From: a virus
Lineage: Duplodnaviria > Caudoviricetes
DNA length: 64,000 bases
Virus record (IMG/VR): IMGVR_UViG_3300033067_002132
Location: 1-64,000 of that record
Reading direction: 5' to 3' (one strand)
Positions 2,966 to 25,166 of this stretch are shown one piece after another. Position 1 is the first letter of the stretch; every line of letters begins with the position of its first letter. Made by a program: the position numbers and the translations under genes. Below the pieces are notes generated by a model. That model made no database searches. It was not told the origin of the DNA and saw nothing but the letters and a program-made list of their open reading frames with translations.

Positions 2966-3042
2966 GCGTCAATCACCTAGTAGTCATGGTATCTCATTGC
3001 CAATGAGAAATAACGAGAGTGCAAACCTCTCTTGGCGCACCA
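2966..3042 (+). tRNA. tRNA-Gly(GCC)
   Basis: Cloverleaf; TCTCA-TTGCCAA-TGAGA; CCA encoded. Confidence 0.9.
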
Positions 3043-3049
3043 GATTTAT

Positions 3050-3140
3050 TGCCACCTACTCTAATTGGTAAGAGACAACGCTTTGAACGTTGTGTATGCA
3101 AGAAATTGTTATGAAGGTTCGAATCCTTCGGTGGCCGCCA
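3050..3140 (+). tRNA. tRNA-Gln(TTG) with long variable arm
   Basis: CAACG-CTTTGAA-CGTTG; 20-nt variable region; GAAGG-TTCGAAT-CCTTC; CCA. Confidence 0.8.
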
Positions 3141-3173
3141 ATTTGTTAACCAAGTACACTTATATATACTTTA

Positions 3174-3180
3174 AGTGTAA
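3174..3180 (+). promoter_or_regulatory. GTGTA late-promoter-like motif (representative copy)
   Basis: Recurs 5-15 nt upstream of start codons at about 15 loci. Confidence 0.6.
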
Positions 3181-3189
3181 TATGGTTAT

Positions 3190-3915
3190 ATGAGAAGATC
3201 AAAAATATATACTGTTTCAGACGAAGATTTTATTTTTTTAGTTAAAAATTCCAAGTCAATGTCTGAATTACTTTCTAAACTTATATTAGAAAATAAAGGT
3301 GGAAATTATTTAACAGTTAAAAGAAGGATTAAACAATTAAATATTAGTACCGAACATTTTTTATCTAGAACAAACGCTAGTCTTGCTGTAAATAAAATGA
3401 CGTTAGAAAAATTTTTAGAATTAATTAAAGGTAATTCAAAAATAAAAAGACATTCATTAAAAATATATTTATTACGTTTCAATTTAAAAGAATATAAATG
3501 TTTTATTTGTGAAAATGATGGATATTGGAATAATCAAAAATTAAGTTTACAATTAGATCATATTAATGGAAATAGTAATGATCATCGTTTAGATAATATA
3601 AGATTTTTATGTCCAAACTGTCATAGTCAAACAGATAATTTTGCGGGTAAAAAACGTAAAATTAGTAGAGAACCTTATAAATGTAAAAATTGTAATAAAA
3701 TTAAATTAAATAAAAGTCCGTTATGTATGGATTGTTTTATAATGGGAAAACATAATATTTTAAATATATCTGTAGATAATCTTTTAGAAAAAATTAAATT
3801 AAATTCTATGAGAGAGGTTTCAAGATTATTAAATATTCCTTATACAAGTTTAACAAGATTTTGTATTAAAAATAATATAGATTATAAAAATTTATGTCCA
3901 TCATTTCATGATTAA
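3190..3915 (+). CDS. HNH homing endonuclease
   Basis: LQLDHINGNSNDHRLDNIRFLCPNCHSQT. Confidence 0.9.
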   Translation: MRRSKIYTVSDEDFIFLVKNSKSMSELLSKLILENKGGNYLTVKRRIKQLNISTEHFLSRTNASLAVNKMTLEKFLELIKGNSKIKRHSLKIYLLRFNLKEYKCFICENDGYWNNQKLSLQLDHINGNSNDHRLDNIRFLCPNCHSQTDNFAGKKRKISREPYKCKNCNKIKLNKSPLCMDCFIMGKHNILNISVDNLLEKIKLNSMREVSRLLNIPYTSLTRFCIKNNIDYKNLCPSFHD

Positions 3916-3921
3916 AAAAGT

Positions 3922-3949
3922 TTGACAAAGAAGAAAAGAAATGTAAGAT
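3922..3949 (+). promoter_or_regulatory. Sigma70-like early promoter (representative copy)
   Basis: TTGACA-N16-TAAGAT; similar elements at 2403, 5352, 7340, 15747, 23027, 61074 and many others. Confidence 0.7.
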
Positions 3950-3957
3950 TCATATAT

Positions 3958-4046
3958 GCGCTTGTGGCGGAATAACAATACGCGACAGTCTTAGAAACTG
4001 TAGATAGAAATATCACCTGTAGGTGGAAATCCTACCAAGCGCACCA
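3958..4046 (+). tRNA. tRNA-Leu(TAG)
   Basis: ACAGT-CTTAGAA-ACTGT, long variable arm, CCA. Confidence 0.9.
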
Positions 4047-4058
4047 ATTTTCAATAAT

Positions 4059-4134
4059 GGGCGTGTAGACCAAAAGCAGAGTTAACAGACTTAAAATCTG
4101 TCAAGTGTCGGTGCAAGACCGGCCACGCCTACCA
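4059..4134 (+). tRNA. tRNA-Leu(TAA), short variable loop
   Basis: ACAGA-CTTAAAA-TCTGT, 5-nt variable loop, CCA. Confidence 0.85.
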
Positions 4135-4200
4135 AATTTAGTTTAGATAAAAAAGAGTTTGACGAAAAGACAAACCTTTGATAGTATAGATGAAGATTTA

Positions 4201-4310
4201 AAGATACGTACAGCAACAATACATTTAATGTATAGCTCAATTAGCTGAGCATTTGCCTATCAAGCAAACGATGTGGGTGCGATTCCCGCTACAATAAAAA
4301 ACGTATCTTG
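4201..4310 (+). ncRNA. ACAGCAA-stem RNA copy 1, carrying a tRNA body
   Basis: AAGATACGT(4201-4209)/ACGTATCTT(4301-4309) + ACAGCAA enclosing D arm, anticodon arm (loop CTATCAA) and T arm; no CCA. Confidence 0.75.
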
Positions 4311-4322
4311 TTATTTCACAAT

Positions 4323-4417
4323 TTGCGAGTGTTTGAAAGACCGCTTATAAACGTCAATCTTTCAAATTTGGGCGCAAGTGCCGCGAGCGTAATTCAGCGA
4401 ATAAGCACTACTCGCAA
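4323..4417 (+). ncRNA. Unknown three-way-junction RNA
   Basis: TTGCGAGT/ACTCGCAA closing stem with TTTGAAAGA/TCTTTCAAA and AGTGC/GCACT arms. Confidence 0.5.
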
Positions 4418-4427
4418 TTTAATTTAA

Positions 4428-4503
4428 GCCGTCGTGCCTCGACTAGTAAGGGGCTTGTTTTGTAAACAAGTTTATATAGGAGCATAACCTATCGGCGGCT
4501 CCA
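4428..4503 (+). tRNA. tRNA-Thr(TGT)
   Basis: CTTGT-TTTGTAA-ACAAG, CCA. Confidence 0.85.
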
Positions 4504-4508
4504 GTTTT

Positions 4509-4640
4509 TAGATCCGTACAGCAACGTTAATCCTTAATGGAAAAGCAATTAGCCTTGAAAGCTAAGTATCCTAGTTCAAATCTAGGTCTGGGGACCAATT
4601 TTATTTTCCCCCAGATATGCAAAATAAAAAACGGATCTAG
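4509..4640 (+). ncRNA. ACAGCAA-stem RNA copy 2, carrying a circularly permuted tRNA
   Basis: TAGATCCGT/ACGGATCTA + ACAGCAA; inside, a 3' tRNA part ending TCTGGGG-ACCA precedes its 5' acceptor strand CCCCAGA-TA-TGC. Confidence 0.75.
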
Positions 4641-5308
4641 TTCAATTTAGAATTAATAATATTAGTAATAATATCTAAAAAGTATTTAGCTTTTTCGATC
4701 TTAAAATAAGTAAATTTTGAAGAATCAATAATACATAATTCTATATTATTTTCTAGACATGCTTGAAATTTTCTAGAATCATTATTTTTGATTTGATCCA
4801 ATTTTTCTTTTCCAAAAATAGGTTCATAATGAAAAATACCATTTAGCTCAAAAGCAAGTTTTAAAGATGGAATATGAATATCTAATTCAGAATTTATAGC
4901 GTCTTTTTTATTAAAATGAAATTCTAAATGTGGGTATAACTTAATAAGTTCAGATTGTAAATATTTCTCTAATTTAGAGATACGAGTTCCTGTAGTTTTG
5001 TGAGTATTATGATAAGTAGCAGAACAAGATTGTGAGCAAAAAGATTTATTTGATTTAATTTGAGAAATAATACGACTAAATTCTGTTTGACAAACTTCAC
5101 ATTTTAAAGATCGAACATTTCTTTGACTATCTGTTAAACATTTTCTAGAACAATATTTCATAAAATATCTATTAGATTTATTATTTAAAGATCTTTTAAT
5201 ATATTTTTGCATTCTAAAAAATTTATTTTTACAAAATTCGCATTCTAAAGGCAATAACTCATTATACTTAAAATTATTTAAAGTATTTATATCAAATAGA
5301 GGTTTCAT
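4637..5308 (-). CDS. Zn-finger + PD-(D/E)XK (Vsr/DUF559-like) homing-type endonuclease
   Basis: CxxC/YCS repeats; ELDIHIP...AFELNGIFHY. Confidence 0.75.
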   Translation of the reverse strand: MKPLFDINTLNNFKYNELLPLECEFCKNKFFRMQKYIKRSLNNKSNRYFMKYCSRKCLTDSQRNVRSLKCEVCQTEFSRIISQIKSNKSFCSQSCSATYHNTHKTTGTRISKLEKYLQSELIKLYPHLEFHFNKKDAINSELDIHIPSLKLAFELNGIFHYEPIFGKEKLDQIKNNDSRKFQACLENNIELCIIDSSKFTYFKIEKAKYFLDIITNIINSKLN

Positions 5309-5386
5309 TAGTGGTATTTACACTTGTTTTCGAAAATAAGAATTTAAAAACTTGACAAAAATTAAAAAAGGATTAATATATAAACA

Positions 5387-5875
5387 ATGAACGCATACGA
5401 ACACGGTTATAAAGTACATGAAATTCTTAATACTGAAGTTTTTCCTTTATTAACACAAAGATTACCGCCCTTATTAGCGATTAATTTTTCTAATTATTTA
5501 GATGCATTTTTAGGTTATCCAAAATGTACAAATATTGCGGAACAAATATATTTTACTAATTCTACTCCGTTAATTTCTTTTGAATTCTTAAAGAGATTTA
5601 AAGATAAATGTATTGGATACTGCGGGAGTAATCCGGCCGATGTCGCGGCGATTGGACAAGTTAGAGCAATCTATCAATTAAGTCCGGATCTTCATATTCA
5701 AGTAGGAATAGGAATTTTTACGCATCCTGAAGGAATTCAAAAATTTTTAGTATATAATCTTTTCGCGATGACAAATTATGATTTGTATCATCAGTTTATG
5801 AAAGATAATAATGATTTAATAATTAAATCTGATCCTGTTGTAAAAACAAAAGCGGGCGTTGGATTTAATGGATAA
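5387..5875 (+). CDS. Hypothetical protein
   Basis: ORF directly after the TTGACA promoter at 5352. Confidence 0.6.
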   Translation: MNAYEHGYKVHEILNTEVFPLLTQRLPPLLAINFSNYLDAFLGYPKCTNIAEQIYFTNSTPLISFEFLKRFKDKCIGYCGSNPADVAAIGQVRAIYQLSPDLHIQVGIGIFTHPEGIQKFLVYNLFAMTNYDLYHQFMKDNNDLIIKSDPVVKTKAGVGFNG

Positions 5876-5885
5876 AAAGTTTTAC

Positions 5886-5964
5886 GGGGAATGGGACTGC
5901 TAGGAGTGGTCACTGAGCTTGCACCTCAGATTTCAGAAGAGTTCAAATCTCTTATTCTCCACCA
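5886..5964 (+). tRNA. tRNA-Ala(TGC)
   Basis: G3:U70, CTGAG-CTTGCAC-CTCAG, CCA. Confidence 0.9.
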
Positions 5965-6159
5965 ATTTTAAAATGTTATCACAAAAAGAATTCAACGACT
6001 TGACGCCATACCAAAGAGGGTATACAGTTTATCTATACGGCGCGAATCCCGAAGAACCGAATGTTCCTGATGAACAGAATCCTTATCCTAAAGATTCAAA
6101 TGAACATTTTGAATATCTTTGTGGCGCGGCCAAAGCGGTTTTAGAAGTTTTAGATATGG

Positions 6160-6690
6160 TTGAATAAAAATATGAATAATTTATCTTTAAAAGATCATAT
6201 TGATGAACCAATATTAAAATGTGTTGTTGGTTTAAATCTATTAGGAATTAAAACGGGAATGTCATGTTGTGGATTTGATTATGAGAATCCAAAAGTTCCT
6301 AAATCTCATTTAAAACCTTATATTTATATTATTAAAGAATCTTTAAATAATCCGCAAAAATGTCAAGATTTATTAGAAATAATGCATAAATCTTGTTGGT
6401 CGTTAAATGGTAATGTTGGACCTATTTTTTTTGATTTAATGTGTGATTCTTGGGATGAAAGACATCCTTGGTCTAAAAGAGATTCTATTCATAATTATGA
6501 AGTTCCAATAATAAAAATTCAATTTTTAGAAAATTCAATTAATGAAAAGGTTGTTTCTAAAGATTTTAATGAAGATTATTCAGTTTTAATAGAAGATGGT
6601 AATAAGTTATATTTAAAGCAATTTAGAAAATGGGTTTATAAACCCGCTTTAGATTGGAAAGTAACTTATGCAGAATATAAGAATTTATAG
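6160..6690 (+). CDS. Hypothetical protein
   Basis: IDEPI...LN..GIKT.MSCCG motif, common in phage proteins. Confidence 0.6.
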   Translation: MNKNMNNLSLKDHIDEPILKCVVGLNLLGIKTGMSCCGFDYENPKVPKSHLKPYIYIIKESLNNPQKCQDLLEIMHKSCWSLNGNVGPIFFDLMCDSWDERHPWSKRDSIHNYEVPIIKIQFLENSINEKVVSKDFNEDYSVLIEDGNKLYLKQFRKWVYKPALDWKVTYAEYKNL

Positions 6691-6694
6691 TTTT

Positions 6695-6820
6695 CGATTC
6701 CTCTATGAAGCAGGTCGTTTAGTAAAAGAAATAGCAGGATTTATTGCGACGACGGTAATAAACTGAAAATGCCAGAAGCTAACTATTGTGGAATCGCCCA
6801 TATGGTTCGAACCGTATGGG
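6695..6820 (+). ncRNA. Unknown structured RNA
   Basis: CGATTCC/GGAATCG long-range stem, internal TTTATTGC/GTAATAAA hairpin, then CCCATATGG-TTCGAA-CCGTATGGG. Confidence 0.5.
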
Positions 6821-6831
6821 GTTAATTTAAA

Positions 6832-6897
6832 AAGATCCGCACAGCAACAATAAAAATTATCACTCCATCATTACTGTGATAAGTAAAACGGATCTTG
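6832..6897 (+). ncRNA. ACAGCAA-stem RNA copy 3
   Basis: AAGATCCG/CGGATCTT + ACAGCAA enclosing a TTATCAC/GTGATAA hairpin. Confidence 0.7.
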
Positions 6898-6901
6898 TTT
6901 T

Positions 6902-6977
6902 CTCTACTAAGCTAATCTAGTGAAAGCGTTTCCCTGAAGAGGAAGAGAGTTTGGAGCGTAACCAAAAGTAGAGGCCA
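6902..6977 (+). tRNA. tRNA-Phe(GAA)
   Basis: CTCTACT/AGTAGAG, loop CTGAAGA, CCA. Confidence 0.8.
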
Positions 6978-6984
6978 ATTTAAT

Positions 6985-7060
6985 TCCAGAGTAGCACAAT
7001 TGGTAGTGCGCTCGGCTGTTAACCGAAAGGTTGTAGGATCGTACCCTACCTCTGGAGCCA
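6985..7060 (+). tRNA. tRNA-Asn(GTT)
   Basis: Cloverleaf, loop CTGTTAA, CCA. Confidence 0.9.
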
Positions 7061-7066
7061 ATTTAT

Positions 7067-7360: not shown

Positions 7361-7383
7361 GATAGTATAGAAGAAGATTTAAT

Positions 7384-7454
7384 GCGATAAGGCTGGGAAT
7401 GGTTTTCCGGAAACTTTCATAAGGTTTTGTAATCTGTTCGATTCAGATCTCGCT
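7384..7454 (+). pseudogene. tRNA-Met(CAT)-like, 3' acceptor strand damaged
   Basis: AAACT-TTCATAA-GGTTT and ATCTG-TTCGATT-CAGAT intact; 3' strand shortened, no CCA, overlapped by the end of the opposite-strand endonuclease gene. Confidence 0.65.
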
Positions 7455-8075: not shown

Positions 8076-8105
8076 ATAAAAGTATTTACACTAATTTATA
8101 AAAAT

Positions 8106-8194
8106 GGGATATAAGGCGAAGTGTCGAGCCACAACCCTGTCACGGTTGCATTTAGTAAAATAAATAGTGGGTGCGAGCCCCATATATCCCGCCA
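8106..8194 (+). tRNA. tRNA-Asp(GTC) with long variable region
   Basis: CAACC-CTGTCAC-GGTTG; ~18-nt variable region; CCA. Confidence 0.8.
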
Positions 8195-8199
8195 ATTTT

Positions 8200-8544: not shown

Positions 8545-8623
8545 CCGGACAAGCGTGCCGGAACGCACTTGAAATGCGATTGATCTCAAAAGGGTTAGGG
8601 GGCAGGACCTTAGCTTTCCGCCA
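8535..8623 (+). tRNA. tRNA-Ser(TGA), non-canonical 8/4 or 9/3 fold
   Basis: GGAAAGTT(A)/(T)AGCTTTCC acceptor, 3-4 bp T stem, long variable arm, G73, CCA. Confidence 0.7.
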
Positions 8624-8630
8624 ATTTTAT

Positions 8631-8707
8631 GCGGTGTTCGCCTAACTGGCATGGCACCTTCCTTCCAAGTAGGAATAATATCAGTTCGAACCTGATACAC
8701 CGCACCA
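8631..8707 (+). tRNA. tRNA-Gly(TCC)
   Basis: Cloverleaf, loop CTTCCAA, CCA. Confidence 0.9.
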
Positions 8708-8717: not shown

Positions 8718-8792
8718 GGCCCTATAGTGTAACAGTTAGCACGAGACTCTTTGAAAGTCTTTGTATAGGTGCGAATCCTTTTGGGGCTGCCA
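8718..8792 (+). tRNA. tRNA-Gln(TTG)
   Basis: AGACT-CTTTGAA-AGTCT, CCA. Confidence 0.85.
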
Positions 8793-8832: not shown

Positions 8833-9885
8833 ATGACAATGACGAGTTCACAAAAATTACAAAATTTACAAAGAAATAAATTAAAGATCAGAAATTTTCT
8901 ACGTAAATTTGGAATGCCGAAATTATGTTTCGCCGAATCGGGCGACAGATCTTCTAGAATGATTAATAATGTAGATTTAGATAATTTATGTTTTCAAAAT
9001 TCACACGGTAAAGATGCTTATTTTTACGTAAATTCTGGCGGAACAAAAGCAGAAGAAGTTACGCAAATTAATGCGGCTTATGTAGATTTAGATGTAGGAA
9101 AAGACGAGAATAAACAATATTTTACCGCCGCAATTGTAAATAAGAAGAAAAAGATTATTCTTGATAAGATTAATTCTTTTCCAGTAAAACCAAGTTTTGT
9201 AGTAGAAACGAGAAATGGATACCATGTTTATTGGTTAATCAAAAATCTTAAATTAGGTAATGTCGTTACTAAAAGAAACGAATTAGTTAATCGGTGGAAA
9301 CAATTAGAGTATAAATTACTCAATTATTTTAAAGATGTCGGCGCGGATAAATGGGTTATTAGATTAAATCAAATTTTGCGCGTTCCTTATTCATATTGGT
9401 ATAAGGATTGGTCAAATGTAAAAGATTTACATCAAACTGCGATTGTTCGTGCAGGTTCAGAAGTATATACGTTGAATCAATTAGAAAATTTATTCAGTAA
9501 ATATACTCTCGGCGCAATGAGTTATGGAGATCGAACGAATTTTAATCAAAATAATAGTTCTTTACCTTGGGCGCAATTCCATCAAGCGGTAAAAAATGGA
9601 ACTAGCGAAGAGGCGGCATTTAAAGAAATTATTGCTAGTAAACCTAAAAGTTTAGTACCAAATATAAATACTGAGAAAGAGGGTGTATATCTTGTGCATG
9701 ATGTTTGTATGGCAACTCTTAAAGAAGAATTAAAAGCGGCGAAAAAGCAAAGAAAGAAACCGCTCAAAACCGAATTACTTGATCTTTTAAATTTTCTTAA
9801 AAATGATTACTTTGATGATCCGATTTATAAGAAAACAAATGAATATATAGAAAGTATTAGACAAAGAGTAGAAAGTGAGTTATAG
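8833..9885 (+). CDS. RepB-type AEP primase-like protein
   Basis: YVDLD, PSFVVETRNGYHVYW, ILRVPYS; start moved to the ATG after tRNA-Gln. Confidence 0.75.
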   Translation: MTMTSSQKLQNLQRNKLKIRNFLRKFGMPKLCFAESGDRSSRMINNVDLDNLCFQNSHGKDAYFYVNSGGTKAEEVTQINAAYVDLDVGKDENKQYFTAAIVNKKKKIILDKINSFPVKPSFVVETRNGYHVYWLIKNLKLGNVVTKRNELVNRWKQLEYKLLNYFKDVGADKWVIRLNQILRVPYSYWYKDWSNVKDLHQTAIVRAGSEVYTLNQLENLFSKYTLGAMSYGDRTNFNQNNSSLPWAQFHQAVKNGTSEEAAFKEIIASKPKSLVPNINTEKEGVYLVHDVCMATLKEELKAAKKQRKKPLKTELLDLLNFLKNDYFDDPIYKKTNEYIESIRQRVESEL

Positions 9886-9957
9886 TTCTTGTGTGTGACG
9901 GTAGCACGTTTCTCTCTGAAAGAAATGGATCGCGTTCGACTCGCGAAAGAACTACCA
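9884..9957 (+). tRNA. tRNA-Gln(CTG)
   Basis: TTTCT-CTCTGAA-AGAAA, CCA. Confidence 0.85.
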
Positions 9958-9965: not shown

Positions 9966-10042
9966 GGCTCGCAAGCATTGATAGTTTGATGCATTCGCCT
10001 TTTAAGCGACAGAGTTCGGCGCAAGTCCGAAGCGAGCTACCA
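9966..10042 (+). tRNA. tRNA-Lys(TTT)
   Basis: Loop CTTTTAA, CCA. Confidence 0.9.
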
Positions 10043-10190: not shown

Positions 10191-10952
10191 ATGAGCATTA
10201 GATCAGAACATGTAAAAATCTGGAGAGATAGAATTAAACAAAGAATTATTGATGCATTTAATGGTAAATGTGGAATTTGTGGTTATAATAAATGTAACGC
10301 GGCATTAGAATTACATCATATAAATCCAAGTGAAAAAGATTTTAGTTTTGGTAGAATAAGAGCGAATCCAAAAAATTGGGAATCTTTAGTTAGAGAATTA
10401 AGAAAATGTGTTTTATTATGTTCTAATTGTCATAGAGAAATTCATAATAACGTTTCTGAATTACCCAAAGATATAATTCGTTTTGATGAAGATTTTGCAG
10501 ATTACAAGAAAATAGAACTTTCGTTTAAAACAGAAACAATTATAAATAATTGTCCTATTTGTGGAAAAACTAAATATGTATGGAATAAAACATGTTCTTA
10601 TAATTGTGCTAATAAATTAATTGGTGTTTATAAATGGGAAGAATATAATTTAGAAGATTTATTTTTAAATAAAAAATATAAAATAGAAGATATTGCTGAT
10701 TTAATAGGTTGTTCTAATCAGGCAGTAATTAAACAATTAATTAAACAGAATTTATATAAACAAAAGAAAAAACATTTAATAAAATGGCCAAGTAAAGATA
10801 TTTTAGAAAAAGAAGTAAAAGAAAAATCTTTAAAAACGATATGTCAAGAAATAGGATGTTCTCATACTGGTCTAAGAAGACATTTAAAGACAATAGATAT
10901 AAAATGGTATGGACCTGGATTTTGGCAAAAAAAGAAATTTAATAAGTTTTAA
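10191..10952 (+). CDS. HNH homing endonuclease with C-terminal HTH repeats
   Basis: CGICG...LELHHINP...CVLLCSNCHREIH. Confidence 0.9.
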   Translation: MSIRSEHVKIWRDRIKQRIIDAFNGKCGICGYNKCNAALELHHINPSEKDFSFGRIRANPKNWESLVRELRKCVLLCSNCHREIHNNVSELPKDIIRFDEDFADYKKIELSFKTETIINNCPICGKTKYVWNKTCSYNCANKLIGVYKWEEYNLEDLFLNKKYKIEDIADLIGCSNQAVIKQLIKQNLYKQKKKHLIKWPSKDILEKEVKEKSLKTICQEIGCSHTGLRRHLKTIDIKWYGPGFWQKKKFNKF

Positions 10953-10953: not shown

Positions 10954-11047
10954 TGTAGGGTACGCTAATTGGTAAGCGGCGATTCTGTTAAAGTCGTGCA
11001 ATCCTTTTTAATAAGGTATGAAGGTTCAAGTCCTTCCCCTACAGCCA
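10954..11047 (+). tRNA. tRNA-Asn(GTT) with long variable arm
   Basis: CGATT-CTGTTAA-AGTCG; 23-nt variable region; CCA. Confidence 0.8.
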
Positions 11048-11239: not shown

Positions 11240-11326
11240 GGGAAAGATGCCGAATGAGATCAGGCGCCAGACTGTAAATCTGGTAATCCGCATGGATAGA
11301 AGAGGCAGATTCTTCCTTTCCCACCA
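11240..11326 (+). tRNA. tRNA-Tyr(GTA)
   Basis: CCAGA-CTGTAAA-TCTGG, variable arm, CCA. Confidence 0.9.
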
Positions 11327-11331: not shown

Positions 11332-11407
11332 CACCTGTTCGCCTAACTTGGCTATGGCATCGCGTTTGGGTCGCGAAATAATAAAAGTTCAAATCTTTTA
11401 CAGGTGA
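11332..11407 (+). tRNA. tRNA-Pro(TGG), CCA not encoded
   Basis: CACCTGT/ACAGGTG, TCGCG-TTTGGGT-CGCGA. Confidence 0.85.
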
Positions 11408-11457: not shown

Positions 11458-12435
11458 GTGAGAAAATTAATAGATAAAGAGAAGTTAGGATTAGCGATTC
11501 AAAAAAGTTATTGCTATGAAGATATTTGTTTCTATTTAAATAGAAAAAGAAATACGCATTTTACTGATAAAATTAAATATTGTATTCAATACTATAATTT
11601 TGATATTAGTCATTTTAATAGAAATATTAAAAGATTTAAAAATAAAAGAATTAATAAAAAATGCCCTATTTGCAATAAAGAATTTGAAATAATATTAAAT
11701 AATAGAAAAGAAAGAAAATATTGTTCTCGTTATTGCGCTAATAGACCCTCTGTAGGAGATAGATATAATAAAATTAATAATGAAAAAAGATATAATACAT
11801 ATAAAACATATCTTCTAAAAAAGAAAGAAGAAAAAAGATTAATAGAAGAAGAAGAAAAAAGATTAGAACAAAAGTTAAAAATACCTTTATCAGCCTCTTT
11901 TCATTTTAAAAATAGAATTTTGAAAAATAAAATTCGTTATACCCATAATGGTAAACATTTTAAAATTTTTTGTAAAAATTGTGGAAAAGAACATATTACA
12001 AATAGATCTATTACAAAATTTTGTTCTGCTAAATGTGTTTCTAATTTTCATATAAAAAATAAAACACACAAAGGTTGGAAATCTAGAAATATAATATCTT
12101 ATCCAGAGCAATTCTTTATTAAAGTTTTAAATAAAAACGGTTTTGAAGGCAAATATAAAATTAATTATCCAATAACTAAAAAATCTTTAGGAATCAATTG
12201 TTCTTCTTGTTATTTTTTAGATTTTTATTTTCCTGATTTAAATTTAGATTTAGAAATAGATGGAAAACAACATAATTATCAAGAAAGATTAGAATCTGAT
12301 AATAAAAGAGACTTGACTTTAAAAGAAAACGGTTATAAGATTTATAGAATCAAATGGAAAAATATTAATAGAGAAGAAGGTAAGAAATATATTTCCGAAG
12401 AAATTATAAAACTTTTAGATTTACTAAACAAATAA
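11458..12435 (+). CDS. Zn-finger + DUF559/Vsr-like endonuclease
   Basis: YFLDFYF...LEIDGKQH...D..RD..L...GYKIYRI. Confidence 0.85.
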   Translation: MRKLIDKEKLGLAIQKSYCYEDICFYLNRKRNTHFTDKIKYCIQYYNFDISHFNRNIKRFKNKRINKKCPICNKEFEIILNNRKERKYCSRYCANRPSVGDRYNKINNEKRYNTYKTYLLKKKEEKRLIEEEEKRLEQKLKIPLSASFHFKNRILKNKIRYTHNGKHFKIFCKNCGKEHITNRSITKFCSAKCVSNFHIKNKTHKGWKSRNIISYPEQFFIKVLNKNGFEGKYKINYPITKKSLGINCSSCYFLDFYFPDLNLDLEIDGKQHNYQERLESDNKRDLTLKENGYKIYRIKWKNINREEGKKYISEEIIKLLDLLNK

Positions 12436-12440: not shown

Positions 12441-12507
12441 TAGATCCATACAGCAATAAAAAATACTACTTGCCTGTTAAGCAAACAAAGTAAAAAACTG
12501 GATCTAG
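12441..12507 (+). ncRNA. ACAGCAA-stem RNA copy 4, carrying an anticodon stem-loop
   Basis: TAGATCCA/TGGATCTA + ACAGCAA enclosing TTGC-CTGTTAA-GCAA (loop identical to both tRNA-Asn loops). Confidence 0.75.
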
Positions 12508-14143: not shown

Positions 14144-14218
14144 GTTCCGCGACGGAGCAAGTGTACCGATTCGTCTGCAAAACGATAGGGCTAGGCGCGA
14201 TACCTAGGCGGAACTCCA
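14144..14218 (+). tRNA. tRNA-Cys(GCA)
   Basis: Loop CTGCAAA, U73, CCA. Confidence 0.9.
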
Positions 14219-16057: not shown

Positions 16058-16140
16058 CCGAGGGTAGTAATTATATATTAGTAAAACATCTCTTATTCCG
16101 GTGAGAGAAGTAGCTAGCGCAAATCTAGCCCCGAGGGCCA
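16058..16140 (+). tRNA. Atypical tRNA-Arg(CCG)-like
   Basis: T arm GCTAG-CGCAAAT-CTAGC and CCA present; two acceptor mismatches and an extended anticodon stem. Confidence 0.45.
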
Positions 16141-16146: not shown

Positions 16147-16554
16147 GGGCGTGAAAGGATTCGACTTAATGATAAGTTGTATGAGCGCATGTCAAGGAAC
16201 TTAGTTGGCCTTGTAAAAAAACTAAGAAAAAGTTAAATGCTAATAATGACATTAGTGAAATGCTTGGTGAAATCTCTGCTAATCCGGATGCGGTTTTAGC
16301 TGAATTTGCTAGCGAAAATGTGTTAGTCTAATTAAAGATTAATCCGTTATAATAGATAACTCCGATAGTTTAATATAACGTAATTTTCGGAATTAATATT
16401 AAAGTTTTCTTTGCTTTATTATTTCTTATTAAAAAGAATATTGATTATGTCTTTTGTTTATTAAGATATAATACAGAATTAAAAATAAACTAAACATGTA
16501 GTGCAAATAAGCAAAATTATTAAGGACTTGGCTTCGATGCCAACACGTCCACCA
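16147..16554 (+). ncRNA. ssrA: tmRNA
   Basis: 5' GGGCGTGAAAGGATTCGAC, G3:U70 acceptor, pk1-like element, tag ORF, 3' T arm + CACGTCC-ACCA. Confidence 0.9.
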
Positions 16555-17154: not shown

Positions 17155-17247
17155 GGTCCCTTAGCGTAACGGTTAACGCGACACCCTTATAAGGTGGAAG
17201 CTCTAGATTTGAGCAAGATGTAGGTTCGAATCCTACAGGGACTACCA
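17155..17247 (+). tRNA. tRNA-Ile(TAT) with long variable arm
   Basis: Loop CTTATAA; GCTC-TAGATTT-GAGC variable arm; CCA. Confidence 0.8.
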
Positions 17248-17739: not shown

Positions 17740-17809
17740 GGCTCTTAATCTAGGATTAGTTTGCTCTCATAAGGCGAATAGACAGGCGCAAAACCTGTAA
17801 GAGCTACCA
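17740..17809 (+). tRNA. tRNA(CAT) (Met or Ile2) with miniature D arm
   Basis: GGCTCTT/AAGAGCT, loop CTCATAA, 70 nt, CCA. Confidence 0.7.
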
Positions 17810-17811: not shown

Positions 17812-17887
17812 GGTCGGATAGTGAAATTAGATATCACGAAACCCTGCGAAGGTTTAATTTTGAGCGCGAATCTCAATCCGACCACCA
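17812..17887 (+). tRNA. tRNA-Arg(GCG)
   Basis: AAACC-CTGCGAA-GGTTT, CCA. Confidence 0.85.
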
Positions 17888-18257: not shown

Positions 18258-18333
18258 GCCGGTTAAGCATTAATAGCAGATGCATCTGTTTCGTAAACAG
18301 AAGATATGGGCGCAAATCCCATAACTGGCTCCA
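18258..18333 (+). tRNA. tRNA-Thr(CGT)
   Basis: TCTGT-TTCGTAA-ACAGA, CCA. Confidence 0.9.
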
Positions 18334-18336: not shown

Positions 18337-18411
18337 GGCCCTATCGAATATTAAAGAATTCGCGGTTCTCTCTAAACCGAAAAGGCGGTGAAAATCCGGC
18401 TAGGGCTTCCA
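18337..18411 (+). tRNA. tRNA-Glu(CTC), U37
   Basis: CGGTT-CTCTCTA-AACCG, CCA. Confidence 0.7.
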
Positions 18412-18419: not shown

Positions 18420-18495
18420 GGGGTATATCCTCTATGTAATAAGAGCGCGGCCTGTGAAGCTGCCAAAACGAGTGTAAGTCTCGTTATACCCCCCA
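18420..18495 (+). tRNA. tRNA-His(GTG)
   Basis: G-1:C73, GCGGC-CTGTGAA-GCTGC, CCA. Confidence 0.9.
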
Positions 18496-18949: not shown

Positions 18950-19103
18950 GTTAGTTTCGTGTAAACTAACTGGTGGTAGGCACCGTAAATCGGTAGCCCC
19001 AGCTTTGAACGTTGTGCTTTAACAATGTACCTCTCGCCGAAATGGCGATGGGGGAGATCCAATCTAGGGAAGAAATTCTCGGAGATCATGGTTTCCCCCG
19101 CTA
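18950..19103 (+). ncRNA. Unknown multi-hairpin RNA
   Basis: GC-enriched; GTTAGTTT/AAACTAAC, ACCG/CGGT, ACGTTGT/ACAATGT, TCGCC/GGCGA, GGGGGAGA/TTTCCCCC. Confidence 0.5.
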
Positions 19104-19112
19104 ATTTTTTAT

Positions 19113-19200
19113 GGAAGATTGACAGAGTAGTAATGTATCGGTTTGCTAAACCGGAGTCTCGGTAAAACGGGCATAGGTGCGATCCCTATATCTTCCGCCA
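19113..19200 (+). tRNA. tRNA-Ser(GCT)
   Basis: Loop TTGCTAA, long variable arm, G73, CCA. Confidence 0.9.
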
Positions 19201-20597: not shown

Positions 20598-21298
20598 TGC
20601 ATACTTTTTATACTTTATCGATTAATCCTCTTACTTTTGATATTAATAAATTAAAAGATCCTAATCTAAATGGACCCGAAGTAGTTGCTAAATATGGTTG
20701 GGAAGCGTTTATTTATTGGCATACTTTTATTAGAGGAATGGAAAATGACGGTAATGGAACAGTTAAAATTAATCCTGGAGACATTGTTTTAGATCTTGGC
20801 GCGAACATAGGCATGACCGCCCGATTTTTTGAAGAAAATGGAGCATCAAAAATTTATTGTGTAGAACCTGATCCTTTACTATTTAAAGTATTAAAGAAAA
20901 ATAAATCAGATAAATGGATATTAATTAATAATTCAGTTGGTACTGCTAATGGTGAAATTATATTAAATCATTGGGAACCTTTTGAAGATTTACAATATAA
21001 AAGTTATTGTTTAACGTTAAAACATTTATTTTTTACTTATAATATCGATAAAGTTGATTTTTTAAAAATAGATATAGAAGGCGCGGAAAGAGATTTATTA
21101 TATTCTTGTGATATTCGTGATTTTTCTAAAATCAAAAAAATATACATGGAATGGCATAGAAAACCTTGTGAATCGAATGAATTATATAAAGAAAGTTTAG
21201 ATAAAATATTAGAATTTTTAAACAGGAACGGCTACAATACTTGTCTATCTTTTGAAAATATTATTTCAAGTATAGCAGCAATTAATATAAATATATGA
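20597..21298 (+). CDS. FkbM family methyltransferase
   Basis: VLDLGANIG, VEPD, FLKIDIEGAE. Confidence 0.9.
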   Translation: MHTFYTLSINPLTFDINKLKDPNLNGPEVVAKYGWEAFIYWHTFIRGMENDGNGTVKINPGDIVLDLGANIGMTARFFEENGASKIYCVEPDPLLFKVLKKNKSDKWILINNSVGTANGEIILNHWEPFEDLQYKSYCLTLKHLFFTYNIDKVDFLKIDIEGAERDLLYSCDIRDFSKIKKIYMEWHRKPCESNELYKESLDKILEFLNRNGYNTCLSFENIISSIAAININI

Positions 21299-21500
21299 GT
21301 GTATTACTTTCTCTTTTAGGACTGATTCTTTTATTATTCGGTTTTGTAACTCTAACTATTAGAGTTGTTCAATTTTTATTTTTTAGAGGCGGCGAGTCAT
21401 TTAAAGATGAACTATATAATGGATTTAAAGAAGATTTTGATGAAGAAAAAATTGGTGGACAAGTGGTAAAAAATGAAGTAGATTCTACTCAAGAAATAGT

Positions 21501-22505
21501 ATGAAACACATAATTAATCATATCGCTTTTGTTATTGATGAATCTGGATCAATGGGTCAATTTTCCAAAAATGTTGTAAGTGTTTTTGACGATCAAATTA
21601 AATTTTTATCTGAAAAATCCCAAGAATTAGATCAAGAAACTAGAGTATCTGTCTATTTATTTGGTGGGACCGAAGTTAAATGTATTATTTATGATCGAGA
21701 TGTAATGCGTTTACCATCGTTGAAAAATTTATATAAACCCGCTGGTGGAACGCCATTATTTGATGCATTAGATATTGCTGCGCAAGATTTATTCATGATT
21801 CCTGAAATTCACGCGGATCATGCTTTTCTAGTTTATGTTGTTACTGATGGAGGAGAAAATGCTAGCAGTCGATTAGATTCTTTATTATTTAAAGATTTAG
21901 TAAATAAAATTAATAATAAAGAGAATTATACGTTGGCCGTATTTGTTCCTTCAAAAATCGAATTTGAAATTAATAAACAACTTGGATTTTTAGAGGAAAA
22001 TATTTGTATTTGGGATACTTCTAATCATAAATCATTTAATGATGTAGGTACAACGATTCGTACAAGTACCACACAATTCTTTAAAAATCGAAGCACTGGA
22101 ATTCGTAAAAGTACAAATCTATTTAAAGTAGATGTAAATTTTACTAAAACAGAATTAAAAGAAAATTTGACCGAATTATCTAAGAGTTCATATAAATTAT
22201 TTAATATCAGCCGTGAAGCTACTATTAAACCTTTTGTTGAAAAAGAAACTCAAAAACCATATGTAAAGGGTAATTCTTTTTATCAATTAGTTAAGCCAGA
22301 AGTAATTCAAAATTATAAAGATATTATTATTCTTGACAAAAACAGTGGAAGAGTTTATGGTGGATTAGATGCGCGAAATCTTTTAGGATTACCGAACTTT
22401 GATATTAAAGTTTCGCCTGGAGATTTCGATAAGTATGATATCTTTGTACAATCTACGTCTGTTAATAGAAAATTATTAGCAGGTACAAAACTAGTGGTTC
22501 TATAG
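21501..22505 (+). CDS. vWA domain protein with C-terminal extension
   Basis: VIDESGSM, GGTPLFDA, VTDGGENAS, FVQSTSVNRKL. Confidence 0.85.
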   Translation: MKHIINHIAFVIDESGSMGQFSKNVVSVFDDQIKFLSEKSQELDQETRVSVYLFGGTEVKCIIYDRDVMRLPSLKNLYKPAGGTPLFDALDIAAQDLFMIPEIHADHAFLVYVVTDGGENASSRLDSLLFKDLVNKINNKENYTLAVFVPSKIEFEINKQLGFLEENICIWDTSNHKSFNDVGTTIRTSTTQFFKNRSTGIRKSTNLFKVDVNFTKTELKENLTELSKSSYKLFNISREATIKPFVEKETQKPYVKGNSFYQLVKPEVIQNYKDIIILDKNSGRVYGGLDARNLLGLPNFDIKVSPGDFDKYDIFVQSTSVNRKLLAGTKLVVL

Positions 22506-22571
22506 TGAAATCGTATATCACGCGAATTTCCTAAATTTGAATTTTCGGTTAGATTCCGAATAGAACCGCCA
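22496..22571 (+). tRNA. tRNA-Arg(CCT)
   Basis: Loop TTCCTAA, CCA; overlaps the end of the vWA gene. Confidence 0.85.
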
Positions 22572-23065
22572 ATTTATGAAAGGAAAATCTTTATCTGAGT
22601 TTTTTAAGATTAAACCTGGAGTTTTTACAAAATTCCTCAAGGAAGAGGATAAAGCAATAAGAAAAGCCAATAAAAAGTTAGCTAGACGAATTGCGAGAAA
22701 GACGCAATGAAAGCAAAATATAGAAAAATAATATCAGGGACGAAAAAGAATATTTTAAAATTTCATAGACATTATTTAATTATTGTAATGATTATATGGA
22801 TATCGATAATTTCTTGTATTCTATTAGAAGTTAATAATAATTTAAATAGAGAAGCGGTTGTTCCTGCTTTTAAAAATAAAGAGTTTGTAACTTTTAAATC
22901 AGGTTTATCAGGCTATGTAGAAGGTTTTACTTATGTAAATGGCGAATACGTATATAACGTCATTTACCATACGAATCACAATATTAAAGTAAAAAATATC
23001 GTTATTTCAGAAAGTAAACTTCTTGTTGACAGAGATTAAAAAGGCGGTAAGATAGATAGATATTC

Positions 23066-23142
23066 GGGTTGCGGGTGTTAATAGACAACATGACTAGCTC
23101 TTAACTAGATCGATAGGGGTGCGATTCCCCTGCGACCCACCA
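23066..23142 (+). tRNA. tRNA-Lys(CTT)
   Basis: Loop CTCTTAA, CCA. Confidence 0.9.
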
Positions 23143-23178
23143 AATTTTTTGTGTAATCCTTTTTTGAAAGGAGATTTT

Positions 23179-23217
23179 ATGAAAAAGAAATCAGGGGGAA
23201 AAAAGAAAGGATGTTAA
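23179..23217 (+). CDS. Putative 12-aa basic micropeptide MKKKSGGKKKGC
   Basis: GAAAGGAG Shine-Dalgarno and TGTGTAA motif upstream. Confidence 0.4.
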   Translation: MKKKSGGKKKGC

Positions 23218-23277
23218 TTTTATGGATAAAAAATTAGATAAAATAACAGGTGCCGATAAATTAGGATAATTTAATAT

Positions 23278-23354
23278 GCTCTCGTGGCTCGAAAAGATTA
23301 GGCAACAGCCTTCTAAGCTGATTTACGTGGGTGCAAATCCTACCGGGAGCGCCA
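23278..23354 (+). tRNA. tRNA-Arg(TCT)
   Basis: Loop CTTCTAA, CCA. Confidence 0.9.
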
Positions 23355-23726
23355 ATTTATATGAAATGGTTATATCAAAATATTAAGGTTTCAGGGACAT
23401 AAGTAAATACTTATGTCCTATGAATAAATATCTTAAAAATAAAAAATATAAACAAAAAGCTTTTAACAAAGCAAAAATTCTAATTAAGAAAACCGGATGG
23501 TACAAAGAATCTCATTTTCAAAGATTTTTCTACGGTTTTCAAAAAGGATTTAATAAATTTGATCGTCAATTTTTACATGATAATAAAAGTGGTTTCTCAA
23601 AAATCACTAGATCTCATAAAAAATACAATCAAAAGATTTTAAAGAAATGTTATCTTGATGAATTTCAAGATGAAAAATTTGAATACAAATATAAATATTG
23701 CCAATTATATTATTGGTAATTCTAAT

Positions 23727-23800
23727 AGGGGTTTATTTTAAAAGTAGAATATCTCTCTTACAAAGAGGAGACGTTGGAGCGTTACCAACAACCCCTACCA
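23727..23800 (+). tRNA. tRNA-Val(TAC)
   Basis: Loop CTTACAA, CCA. Confidence 0.85.
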
Positions 23801-23806
23801 TTTTTC

Positions 23807-23880
23807 GCCGGTATAGTTTAAAAGTAAAACATAATCTTGGTAAGATTGAGACAGGGGCGCAATACCCCTTACTGGCTCCA
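23807..23880 (+). tRNA. tRNA-Thr(GGT)
   Basis: TAATC-TTGGTAA-GATTG, CCA. Confidence 0.9.
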
Positions 23881-23884
23881 TAAC

Positions 23885-23958
23885 GGTCTCATAATTTAAT
23901 ATTAGAATGCGCTCCTGATTAGAGCGTTGTGTTCGTGGAATTCGAACTGAGACTACCA
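23885..23958 (+). tRNA. tRNA-Ile(GAT), U37
   Basis: CGCTC-CTGATTA-GAGCG, CCA. Confidence 0.8.
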
Positions 23959-23973
23959 ATTTAAATAAAACAT

Positions 23974-24432
23974 ATGAAAATATCCCTATCACAAGCTCTT
24001 AAGTTAAAAAATCGTATTGCAGGACAATTAGTTAAGGCGCAAGAAATTTTTTCTCGCGAAAATTCTCGCCGATCTGATAATCCTTCTCAAGTAGATCGTA
24101 AAGAAGCTTTAGAAAAGATTTTTAAACTCTCCGATCTATTAGGCGATTTAAAAAGTCGAATCGCTACCGCGAATGTTCCAATTTATTCTGATATTGAAAG
24201 ATTAAACGAGACGAAATCATTAATTACGTATATTATCGGTTTAAATAAAACAGAAGGTCCCGATATAGTAGGTACAGTATATAATCAACCACCTAAAGAA
24301 TATACTTGGGACGCTCATTTAAATCAACAAAGCGCCGATAATTTAATTGAAAAGCTTCAACAAAAAATTAATGCGCATCAAGATAAAATCGATGCTTTTA
24401 ATGCAACGACAATTATTGATTTGCCGGATTGA
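23974..24432 (+). CDS. Coiled-coil protein, DIP1984/DUF6847-like
   Basis: LSQALKLKNR N-terminus; LQ.KI...QDKID.FN.TT.I C-terminus. Confidence 0.55.
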   Translation: MKISLSQALKLKNRIAGQLVKAQEIFSRENSRRSDNPSQVDRKEALEKIFKLSDLLGDLKSRIATANVPIYSDIERLNETKSLITYIIGLNKTEGPDIVGTVYNQPPKEYTWDAHLNQQSADNLIEKLQQKINAHQDKIDAFNATTIIDLPD

Positions 24433-24438
24433 TAATTT

Positions 24439-24628
24439 AGGAGAGTAGAAGATTATTGCGAAAATATTCGATTAAATTTTTCCCTTCAAAGGAAATAACA
24501 TTATTTAAAGATATCGAGAAAGAATTCAAAACTAAAAATTTCTGGTATCAAAAGTTAAGATTTAAAGTTCAAAAGTTAAAAATCTTTTGTTTAATCTTAA
24601 TGTTTTCAAAATGATTTTTTACTCTCTT
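24439..24628 (+). ncRNA. Long-stem RNA with A-rich repeat loop
   Basis: 19-bp stem with G-U pairs (24439-24457/24610-24628) plus two further helices, enclosing T(T/C)AAA repeats. Confidence 0.6.
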
Positions 24629-24817
24629 TTATGAAATTAGGTTGTCGCCGACATAAAAAATTTAATAATACATGTAAATATTGTATAGATAATCAACGAT
24701 TTTCTAATCTTTATATAGCACCAGAATACAAATTATATGCGGCGATTTTTAAAATTTCTTTAAATAAAGCACTTAGAGAAAGTAAATCGAAAAAGTTTTA
24801 ATAGAAGTGTAAAATAC

Positions 24818-25090
24818 ATGGTGAGCAGAAAACATAAAAAAAATAAATTGCCCAAAATCATGTATGAGAAACTTGGGCGCCATAAAGCAATTGGTTTATG
24901 TTATAAAGATCCGGCCCATCCCTGGATATTTTTAGATCCAAGAATTAGAGGAAAACAGCATTTAGAAGTATTAATACATGAATTACTTCATGCGGAATTT
25001 CCCGAGTTATCTGAAACGATGGTAACTAGAAAAGCTTATAGATTAAGAGATATGTTGTGGTCTGAAAAATATAGAAGAATTGATGAATAA
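24818..25090 (+). CDS. Small HExxH (minimal zincin-like) protein
   Basis: LEVLIHELLHA. Confidence 0.6.
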   Translation: MVSRKHKKNKLPKIMYEKLGRHKAIGLCYKDPAHPWIFLDPRIRGKQHLEVLIHELLHAEFPELSETMVTRKAYRLRDMLWSEKYRRIDE

Positions 25091-25091
25091 A

Positions 25092-25166
25092 GGTCATATA
25101 ACTCAATAGTAGAGTAAAGTCTTGATAAGGCTTAAGTTGTAGGTGCAAGTCCTATTATGACCACCA
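25092..25166 (+). tRNA. tRNA-Ile(GAT)
   Basis: AAGTC-TTGATAA-GGCTT, CCA. Confidence 0.9.

Follow-up and report, generated by a model that had tools for sequence, protein, structure and literature searches.

Textbooks describe G18 and pseudouridine-55 as universal in transfer RNA (tRNA). In the standard elbow, the corner where the D-loop and T-loop interact, the T-loop has the sequence U-U-C-R-A (R, purine), and G18 is inserted between its bases 57 and 58 and bonded to U55, which is present as pseudouridine. Reviews of T-loops and of the elbow treat U55 and G18 as universal, without mention of G55. Residue 18 intercalates in the T-loop, and the 19-56 pair forms a flat outer face for the stacking of RNase P, the L1 stalk and T-boxes (PMC4810234). 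In a yeast suppressor tRNA, single substitutions at G18, U55, G19, C56, U54 or A58 abolish function (PMC4117946). The T-loops of the flavin mononucleotide (FMN) and cobalamin riboswitches are of the form UGNRA (88.7%) or CGNRA (10.9%; N, any base), and the base intercalated between T-loop positions 4 and 5, nearly always an adenosine, contacts the sugar edge of the position-2 G through two hydrogen bonds, while the UUCRA T-loops of tRNAs are the exception and a GGAAG variant is found in ribosomal RNA (rRNA) (bioRxiv 10.1101/2022.12.26.521914). The array of tRNA genes considered here lies at positions 2966-25166 of the analysed stretch of 64,000 nucleotides (hereafter the window), which corresponds to positions 1-64,000 of the 193,745 bp IMG/VR record IMGVR_UViG_3300033067_002132 (Duplodnaviria; Caudoviricetes).

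When compared to the canonical elbow (RF00005; G18-pseudouridine55, G19-C56, T54-A58), the tRNAs of this phage retain the cloverleaf, the anticodon loop, G53-C61, R57, a paired 19-56, a 7-nt T-loop and the CCA end, but 23 of the 35 tRNAs in the whole genome carry G55, in most cases with A18, and have a base other than U at position 54 in eleven of these, while U55 is kept in the remaining 12. The array resembles the tRNA cluster of phage T5 in its length and in the occurrence of small open reading frames (ORFs) and HNH endonuclease genes among the tRNAs, and the T5 tRNA-Ile(GAU) also shows compensation at 19-56 (G18 A19/U55 U56), but U55 and G18 are present in all 25 T5 tRNAs. The G55 genes probably encode working tRNAs of a large T4-like phage with a second way of locking the corner, that is, an alternative fold and not a product of decay.

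The sequence TTC at positions 54-56 is found in seven confident genes (3050, 5886, 8631, 9884, 10954, 11332 and 17155, genes being designated by their first position) and two weak ones (4531 and 7384), and is missing from 26 of the 35 members of the array, the same count as in the initial annotation. That annotation had further described AG in place of GG in the D-loops of most G55 tRNAs and the retention of GG in nearly all of those with TTC, and this pattern is borne out by a register-free test, in which only the presence or absence of any GG in the D-loop is scored: GG occurs in ten of the 12 U55 tRNAs versus one of the 23 G55 tRNAs (Fisher p 3.7e-6). Where the register is set solely by 19-56 complementarity, using neither position 18 nor position 55, 19 of the G55 tRNAs read A18 unambiguously; tRNA-Ile(GAU) 23885 (23885-23958; relaxed ARAGORN, own covariance model) has A18 with a U19-G56 wobble next to U54 and G55, the residue in tRNA-His reads as A or U, tRNA-Asp(GUC) 8106 has U18, and two G55 tRNAs (17740 and 18337) have no assignable residue 18. 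The register is supported by two pairs of genes. The D arms of the paralogous tRNA-Arg(GCG) (17812-17887; C54; ARAGORN, own model) and tRNA-Arg(CCU) (22496-22571; U54; ARAGORN, Rfam) are otherwise identical, without insertions or deletions, and pair A18 G19 with G55 C56 in the former and G18 U19 with U55 A56 in the latter, while the 8-nt D-loops of tRNA-Ile(UAU) 17155 and tRNA-Gln(UUG) 8718 differ only by a G to A change.

Changes at position 56 had been described as compensated in three tRNAs, and all three cases hold: tRNA-Leu(UAG) (3958-4046; ARAGORN) combines A18 C19 with U54 G55 G56, an inverted 19-56 pair, tRNA-His(GUG) (18421-18495; relaxed ARAGORN, own model) combines A18 A19 with U54 G55 U56, and tRNA-Arg(CCU) combines U19 with A56 as above. 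A further covariation, absent from the initial annotation, links positions 54 and 58, in the combinations U..A, C..A, A..U and G..G. U58 occurs only with A54, in tRNA-Thr(UGU) (4428-4503; Rfam 35.6 bits, relaxed ARAGORN), tRNA-Phe(GAA) (6902-6977; relaxed ARAGORN, own model; G54..G58 in the L074 orthologue), tRNA-Asn(GUU) (6985-7060; ARAGORN, Rfam) and tRNA-Val(UAC) (23727-23800; Rfam, relaxed ARAGORN). Three of these have A18 G19 with A54 G55 C56, while tRNA-Asn 6985 has GG with A54 U55 C56 and thus only the swapped 54-58 pair. C54 is accompanied by A58, and the sole G54, in tRNA-Tyr(GUA) (11240-11326; A18 G19/G54 G55 C56; own model 21.9 bits), is accompanied by G58. R57 and G53-C61 are retained throughout, with the exception of tRNA-Tyr, where positions 53 and 61 form an A-U pair. 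U54 is replaced by C, A or G in 11 of the 23 G55 tRNAs, or 12 of 35 when tRNA-Asn 6985 is counted, and C56 is missing in five. The T-loops of the G55 tRNAs are of the form U/C-G-N-R-A in 19 of 23, A-G-C-R-U in three and G-G-C-A-G in one.

The rewired elbow may be pictured as a Y-G-N-R-A T-loop (Y, pyrimidine) with A18 as the inserted base, as in the unmodified riboswitch RNAs, and at the sequence level the outer 19-56 pair is kept or compensated, as are the 54-58 pair, R57 and G53-C61. Such a swap of T-loop type with retention of the outer face would account for the C54 variants and for the G54..G58 combination of tRNA-Tyr, as well as for the strictness with which positions 18 and 55 are coupled. 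The isostery of the A18/G55 contact is argued by analogy with the riboswitch T-loops, and adenosine is the partner base at the sequence level in 19 to 21 of the 23 G55 tRNAs here and in two further samples discussed below (99 A18/G55 versus 0 G18/G55, and 6 versus 0). The phage T-loops are like the YGNRA T-loops of the FMN and cobalamin riboswitches, rRNA and RNase P RNA in their U/C-G-N-R-A sequence and inserted adenosine, with the G-G-N-A-G loop of tRNA-Tyr resembling the GGAAG of rRNA, but the phage motif sits in a tRNA and its position 3 still takes part in the Watson-Crick 19-56 pair. The A54..U58 variant of the phage tRNAs is not mentioned in the account of this T-loop class (bioRxiv 10.1101/2022.12.26.521914). 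Metazoan mitochondrial tRNAs likewise depart from G18/G19 and T-pseudouridine-C, but they lose or shrink the D/T interaction, whereas the phage tRNAs keep their loop sizes and pairing and swap the contact.

Default ARAGORN predicts 19 tRNAs and a transfer-messenger RNA (tmRNA) in the window and Rfam 20 tRNAs at the gathering score; further genes were obtained with relaxed ARAGORN settings, filtered for clean stems, and with a covariance model trained on 22 tRNAs of the window and run with filters off. The number of confident tRNA genes at 2966-25166 thereby rises to 32, with three or four weak tRNA-like elements beside them (4531, 7384, 16061 and 12442), and the total of 35-36 agrees with the 35 of the initial annotation. 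Three further tRNAs of the genome are located outside the array (61901, 69005 and 77123). All are on the + strand, many are spaced by only 3-12 nt, and CCA is encoded in most. About a third of the non-TTC genes are missed by the Rfam and ARAGORN defaults, the standard tools overlooking tRNA-Lys(UUU) 9966, tRNA-Cys 14144, tRNA-Tyr 11240, tRNA-Asp(GUC) 8106 and the CAU tRNA 17740, and this, along with the few true remnants (4531, 12442 and 16061), is what might be expected if the non-TTC genes were decaying pseudogenes, tRNA-like RNAs without a role in translation, or artefacts of alignment. Such an explanation is highly improbable. The cloverleaf is intact, with a 7-bp acceptor stem, a D arm, a 5-bp anticodon stem with a 7-nt loop, a 5-bp T stem with a 7-nt loop, U33, R57 and G53-C61; the G+C content of the tRNA genes is high (37-53% versus 29% for the genome); CCA is encoded; 20 genes score 35-64 bits against the Rfam tRNA model and all 32 score 22-70 bits against the genome's own covariance model; and the 18-55 coupling is strict even when no register is assumed. 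Furthermore, ten amino acids (Phe, Tyr, Cys, His, Lys, Val, Thr, Ser, Asp and Glu) are decoded in this genome solely by G55 tRNAs, and rare elbow states are kept in relatives. The suggestion in the initial annotation that the pattern reflects selection and not decay thus finds support in the intact cloverleaves and strict coupling, as well as in the orthologues, the conserved rare states and the recurrence of the same rule elsewhere described below.

The covariation extends to other viruses. A search of IMG/VR with one G55-type T-arm gave 118 loci, in 56 of which the match is the T-arm of a tRNA, and these loci yielded 599 unique tRNAs. In the register-free comparison 456 of these combine U55 with GG, 24 have U55 without GG, nine have G55 with GG and 102 have G55 without GG, while with the register fixed there are 259 G18/U55, 99 A18/G55, two A18/U55 and no G18/G55 tRNAs (p 1e-87). 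As the search pattern excludes the D-loop, ascertainment cannot produce the 18-55 association. Position 19 compensates in 19 of 21 viral tRNAs that lack C56 (null mean 3.3), and U58 again occurs only with A54. The near absence of mixed 18/55 states fits the loss of function caused by single changes in the yeast suppressor tRNA (PMC4117946). A sample blind to the motif, consisting of 450 unique tRNAs from 20-kb regions that surround homologues of the DUF7788 gene (window 162-1262), contains 419 TTC tRNAs and only seven with G55 (1.6%), with 241 G18/U55, six A18/G55 and no mixed states. Taken together, the two samples extend the rule to some 1000 viral tRNAs beyond this phage.

The share of G55 genes varies widely: 23 of 35 in this phage, nine of 11 in its relative G005, nine of 25 in G007 (225 kb), eight of 21 in G006 and none of 19 in G002, a true relative, and no clear pattern is seen in the amino-acid identity of the G55 tRNAs across phages. 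In G004 (L221, 45000-51500), an unrelated GC-rich phage fragment of 131 kb with an estimated completeness of 46%, all 32 tRNAs have U54 G55 C56 and an AG D-loop, and none encodes CCA. A lone G55 tRNA, an unannotated tRNA-His(GUG) with A54 G55 C56 and an AG D-loop, is located in the otherwise canonical annotated array of an isolated phage, Raoultella phage Ro1 (L134:9321-9396). The phage studied here is therefore an outlier, at the far end of a phenomenon that recurs but is unevenly distributed.

Mixed arrays with a few G55 genes are common, as would be expected if A18/G55 were a second fitness peak reached by neutral compensatory drift or a founder effect, through chance, mutation bias or copying. 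The AT pressure in this genome (29.4% GC) would favour the change of G18 to A, and the near-identical D and T arms of many G004 tRNAs suggest duplication followed by anticodon remoulding. Drift is nonetheless improbable as the explanation. Against a background of 1.6%, 23 of 35 is not credible by chance; intermediates make up only two of 360 tRNAs and single changes kill the yeast suppressor tRNA (PMC4117946), so that each switch crosses a valley; and the GC-rich G004 made the same switch, contrary to the AT bias. Mean pairwise identity is 0.42 within the G55 tRNAs of this phage, 0.42 within its U55 tRNAs and 0.40 between the two groups, so the G55 tRNAs resemble one another no more than they resemble the U55 tRNAs and do not form one recently expanded paralogue family, which argues against recent copying. 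The contrast between the background and the 66% observed here, together with the canonical sets of close relatives, calls for a force specific to the lineage.

Comparison of orthologues provides a view of the change in place. The tRNA-Ser(GCU) gene (19113-19200; A18 G19/T,G,C; ARAGORN, Rfam) shares 81% identity with a tRNA-Ser(GCU) encoded beside the same DUF7788 gene in another phage (L470:6708-6793), and the acceptor and anticodon arms of the two are identical while their elbows differ at G18/A18 and U55/G55. The tRNA-Asn(GUU) 6985 is 81% identical to its L460 orthologue, with A54..U58 here and U54..A58 there. Three differently compensated elbows are seen among the orthologues of tRNA-Arg(UCU), namely A18 G19/G55 C56 here, G18 A19/U55 U56 in G002 and G18 U19/U55 A56 in the relative from ENA, and the rare A18 C19/G55 G56 state of tRNA-Leu(UAG) is common to this phage and G005. 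At the sequence level, the rewired elbow is thus shown to have arisen in place, through paired substitutions, and to be maintained by selection. Import of the G55 genes as a block from another phage or a mobile tRNA array would accord with the mobility of such arrays, with the HNH endonuclease genes among these tRNAs and with the similar G55 tRNAs in unrelated viral contigs and bacterial tRNA arrays. It is, however, a distinctly unlikely origin, given that the Ser(GCU), Arg(UCU) and Asn(GUU) genes have orthologues of 72-81% identity with different elbows in DUF7788-flanked phages or true relatives, and that no near-identical donor array was found in DNA and tRNA searches of isolate phages and IMG/VR.

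Bacterial genomes searched with the same T-arm pattern contain tRNA genes at 48 of 120 loci, all with AG in the D-loop. The A18/G55 elbow is found in the tRNA-Tyr(GUA) of many Patescibacteria, inside the usual Thr-Tyr-Thr-Trp cluster (L258, L278, L282, L290, L318, L322, L329, L358 and others) in which the neighbouring tRNA-Thr(GGU) is sometimes also A18/G55, while in the tRNA arrays of Pyrinomonadaceae (20-30 genes) it is restricted to tRNA-Tyr. G55 also occurs in the tRNA-Arg(CCG) of several metagenome-assembled genomes. From its place in the cluster, the patescibacterial tRNA-Tyr is presumably a housekeeping tRNA, and the elbow must then suit RNase P, EF-Tu, the synthetase and the ribosome.

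The substitutions bear directly on tRNA modification. Neither TruB nor TrmA is essential in E. coli. As the G55 tRNAs lack U55, they contain no pseudouridine-55 and TruB cannot act on them, while the absence of U54 from eleven G55 tRNAs and tRNA-Asn 6985 precludes 5-methyluridine at position 54 (m5U54), and the lack of G18 precludes 2'-O-methylguanosine (Gm18). The proposal of independence from TruB and TrmA thus stands for TruB in the G55 tRNAs, and for TrmA in just those tRNAs without U54. The main rival account of what drove the change builds on this: a functional elbow selected for independence from host modification, during burst production or in a host with little TruB, TrmA or TrmH, where Y-G-N-R-A with A18 would fold stably without pseudouridine-55, m5U54 and Gm18 and be favoured or freely tolerated. 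The YGNRA T-loop with an adenosine is typical of unmodified RNAs, position 54 drifts to C, A and G once position 55 is G, as expected if m5U54 is irrelevant, and the elbow occurs in the housekeeping tRNA-Tyr of the genome-reduced Patescibacteria. Modification independence leaves unexplained, however, the fully (100%) canonical sets of close relatives with similar genomes, and loss of the modifications made by TruB or TrmA is a weak force, so that this driver is considered rather unlikely.

Escape from a host factor that cuts the T-loop, as put forward in the initial annotation, is plausible, and resistance to defence nucleases that cut at U54-U55-C56 is the leading guess for the driver, although it falls somewhat short of an even chance. 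Cash, a CRISPR-associated nuclease of the Schlafen type, cleaves the T-loop of most E. coli tRNAs at UUC, breaking the phosphodiester bond 5' of U55, and no longer cuts when either U54 or U55 alone is substituted; related Schlafen families are tied to many defence systems, with the targeting of phage tRNAs left open by the authors (PMC13462974). CdiA-CT E479 is another T-loop tRNase (PMC9086364). Both act on the site that is rewritten here and could have been agents of selection, without being related to the system. Judged from sequence only, U54 or U55 is missing in 24 of the 35 phage tRNAs, and as Cash requires both, these 24 would be poor Cash substrates. Slightly more tentatively, the rewired elbow may be a form of immune evasion, in which U55, and in many cases U54, is replaced and A18 compensates structurally, giving a private tRNA pool that T-loop nucleases cannot cleave. 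Translation would then continue from the phage pool after the host destroys its own tRNAs, and the fully rewired sets of other phages would represent this strategy carried to completion. Phage tRNAs that evade nucleases through substitutions at positions the nuclease requires have been described in mycobacteriophage (PMC10264068) and, as cited in PMC13462974, in T5 versus Retron-Eco7 and PARIS (PMC11555353). These known cases alter the anticodon loop of single tRNAs, whereas here the elbow is altered across most of the set and the resistance is putative.

Several observations weigh against this interpretation of the elbow and its driver. U55 is kept by 12 tRNAs and there is no G55 or non-U54 decoder for Pro, Ala or Trp, so that a broad T-loop nuclease would be evaded only in part. 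The same elbow in cellular housekeeping tRNAs means that an anti-defence rationale is not needed. The pairing rules are not without exception, as U18 accompanies G55 in tRNA-Asp(GUC) 8106 and in a tRNA-Ile(UAU) of L010, GG accompanies G55 in 17740 only, and 19-56 is uncompensated in two tRNAs, tRNA-Glu(CUC) (18337-18411; U54 G55 A56 with no complementary 19; relaxed ARAGORN, own model) and tRNA-Leu(CAA) outside the array (61901-61987; TTC T-loop, D-loop without GG; ARAGORN, Rfam). Finally, the studied phage and the unrelated, fully rewired G004 have no gene in common, and a dedicated phage-encoded partner of the elbow is thus not indicated.

Comparison of the whole-genome protein complements of G004, G005, G006 and G007 with that of the canonical relative G002 likewise revealed no gene specific to rewired phages. 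Among 30 ORFs in and around the array compared with Pfam and PHROGs, no candidate tRNA-modifying, tRNA-repair or nuclease gene was found beyond HNH/DUF559 homing-type endonucleases and an FkbM methyltransferase, and no shrunken RNase P RNA was found with Rfam (E up to 10) in window 1-30000. The HNH-type and DUF559-type endonuclease genes are located among the tRNA genes at window 3190-3915, 10191-10952 and 11458-12435, an arrangement as in the tRNA region of phage T5. The record is rated complete by CheckV and its gene content is T4-like, including rIIA, rIIB, nicotinamide phosphoribosyltransferase, phosphoribosyl pyrophosphate (PRPP) synthetase, clamp loader, terminase and portal genes. No close isolate phage was found in a DNA search of an isolate phage collection, and rIIA identity does not exceed 33%. 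The relative G002 (164 kb, IMG/VR) has about 45 proteins in common with this phage at 30-60% identity, with 54% for TerL. TerL as a lone query gave one weak match, while a search with a TerL alignment gave more than 355 members, and the phage family comprises several hundred fragments, the five largest of those from the TerL alignment carrying none or one tRNA each. The VWA protein encoded inside the tRNA array retrieved no relatives when used as a query, and the Arg D-arm pattern had no match in IMG/VR. In the ENA contig that belongs to the closest relative by rIIA, the stretches covered contain three tRNAs, and one variant copy of the Arg(CCU) gene with D-loop changes occurs among short contigs from three DNA runs, its T-loop lying close to the contig end.

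The remaining genes of the array can be grouped according to their elbows. Canonical GG with TTC is found in tRNA-Gln(UUG) (3050-3140), tRNA-Gly(UCC) (8631-8707), tRNA-Gln(CUG) (9884-9957), tRNA-Asn(GUU) (10954-11047), tRNA-Pro(UGG) (11332-11407) and tRNA-Ile(UAU) (17155-17247), all predicted by both ARAGORN and Rfam, and in tRNA-Ala(UGC) (5886-5964; ARAGORN, own model). A18 G19 is combined with T,G,C in tRNA-Gly(GCC) (2966-3042; A58, encoded CCA; Rfam 51 bits, relaxed ARAGORN), tRNA-Leu(UAA) (4059-4134; ARAGORN), tRNA-Gln(UUG) (8718-8792; ARAGORN, Rfam), tRNA-Lys(CUU) (23066-23142; ARAGORN, own model), tRNA-Arg(UCU) (23278-23354; ARAGORN, Rfam) and a second tRNA-Ile(GAU) (25092-25166; ARAGORN, Rfam), as well as in a tRNA with the anticodon AUC, possibly Asp, that lacks CCA and whose AT-rich acceptor stem contains one mismatch (4226-4298; Rfam 55 bits). 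In tRNA-Asp(GUC) (8106-8194; own model 22.6 bits) T,G,C is accompanied by G19 and a probable U18. The C54 G55 C56 T-loop with A18 G19 is encoded in tRNA-Lys(UUU) (9966-10042; own model 43.8 bits), tRNA-Cys(GCA) (14144-14218; own model 32 bits), tRNA-Thr(CGU) (18258-18333) and tRNA-Thr(GGU) (23807-23880), the latter two predicted by Rfam and relaxed ARAGORN. The same T-loop occurs in a 67-nt tRNA with the anticodon CAU, either Met or Ile2, that has a 3-bp D stem and a 4-nt D-loop with GG (17740-17809; relaxed ARAGORN, own model).

A long variable arm is normally confined to Leu, Ser and Tyr tRNAs. In this genome, long hairpin-forming variable arms are found in tRNA-Gln(UUG) 3050, tRNA-Asp(GUC) 8106, tRNA-Asn(GUU) 10954 and both copies of tRNA-Ile(UAU) (17155 and genome 77123-77216), and among these every elbow is canonical except that of tRNA-Asp(GUC). 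Other viral arrays have a long variable arm in six of eight Ile(UAU) and four of 34 Asn(GUU) tRNAs, while a short (class I) variable region is present in 34 of the 61 Leu tRNAs of the viral sample, as it is in tRNA-Leu(UAA) 4059, where it measures 5 nt.

The weaker elements are diverse. That at 4531-4597 (Rfam 26 bits, own model 24 bits) has a Ser UGA-like anticodon arm and a TTC T-loop but no proper acceptor stem, and a Met(CAU)-like element with TTC and without CCA is located at 7384-7454 (own model 18.8 bits). The degenerate elements at 4509-4597 and 12442-12506 open with a common motif of about 15 nt, AGATCC-R-TACAGCAA, the former being followed by a terminator-like hairpin, and may represent remnants or insertion scars. 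Directly 5' of the tmRNA is an element with a C,G,C T-loop, a poor acceptor stem and a terminal CCA (16061-16134; own model 15 bits), flanked on both sides by a 7-nt direct repeat (16058-16140). The tmRNA itself (16147-16554; ARAGORN, Rfam 94.5 bits) lies inside the array and has a tRNA-like domain with a canonical TTC T-loop, and ARAGORN predicts an unusually long tag of 30 residues. Directly 5' of tRNA-Ser(GCU), a strongly structured stretch of 148 nt (18965-19112, + strand) has a minimum free energy of -53.6 kcal/mol and a z-score of -3.8, with none of 200 shuffles as stable, and does not match any Rfam family. Elsewhere in the genome, a tRNA-like match of 124 nt (70313-70436; 23 bits) combines a canonical T-arm with roughly 50 nt of inserted sequence, and may represent a disrupted tRNA or one with an intron.

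The literature searched on A18/G55, on U55G/G18A and on the phage tRNA T-loop yielded no account of an A18-G55 elbow in tRNA, but its coverage is incomplete and this does not amount to proof of novelty; the work on evasion of anticodon nucleases through anticodon-loop changes mentions neither the T-loop nor the D-loop (PMC10264068). The genes themselves are ordinary tRNA genes that use a T-loop class already known in other RNAs. Standard gene finders miss about a third of such genes. The question of whether Cash acts on phage tRNAs becomes testable with natural substrates, such as tRNA-Ser(GCU) and its canonical orthologue, which differ at positions 18 and 55, and the rewired tRNAs are possible orthogonal tRNA scaffolds. 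A natural, strictly covarying A18-G55 alternative that serves most of the tRNA set of one phage and recurs in hundreds of viral tRNAs and in the housekeeping tRNA-Tyr of Patescibacteria implies that there is a second workable way to build the tRNA corner.

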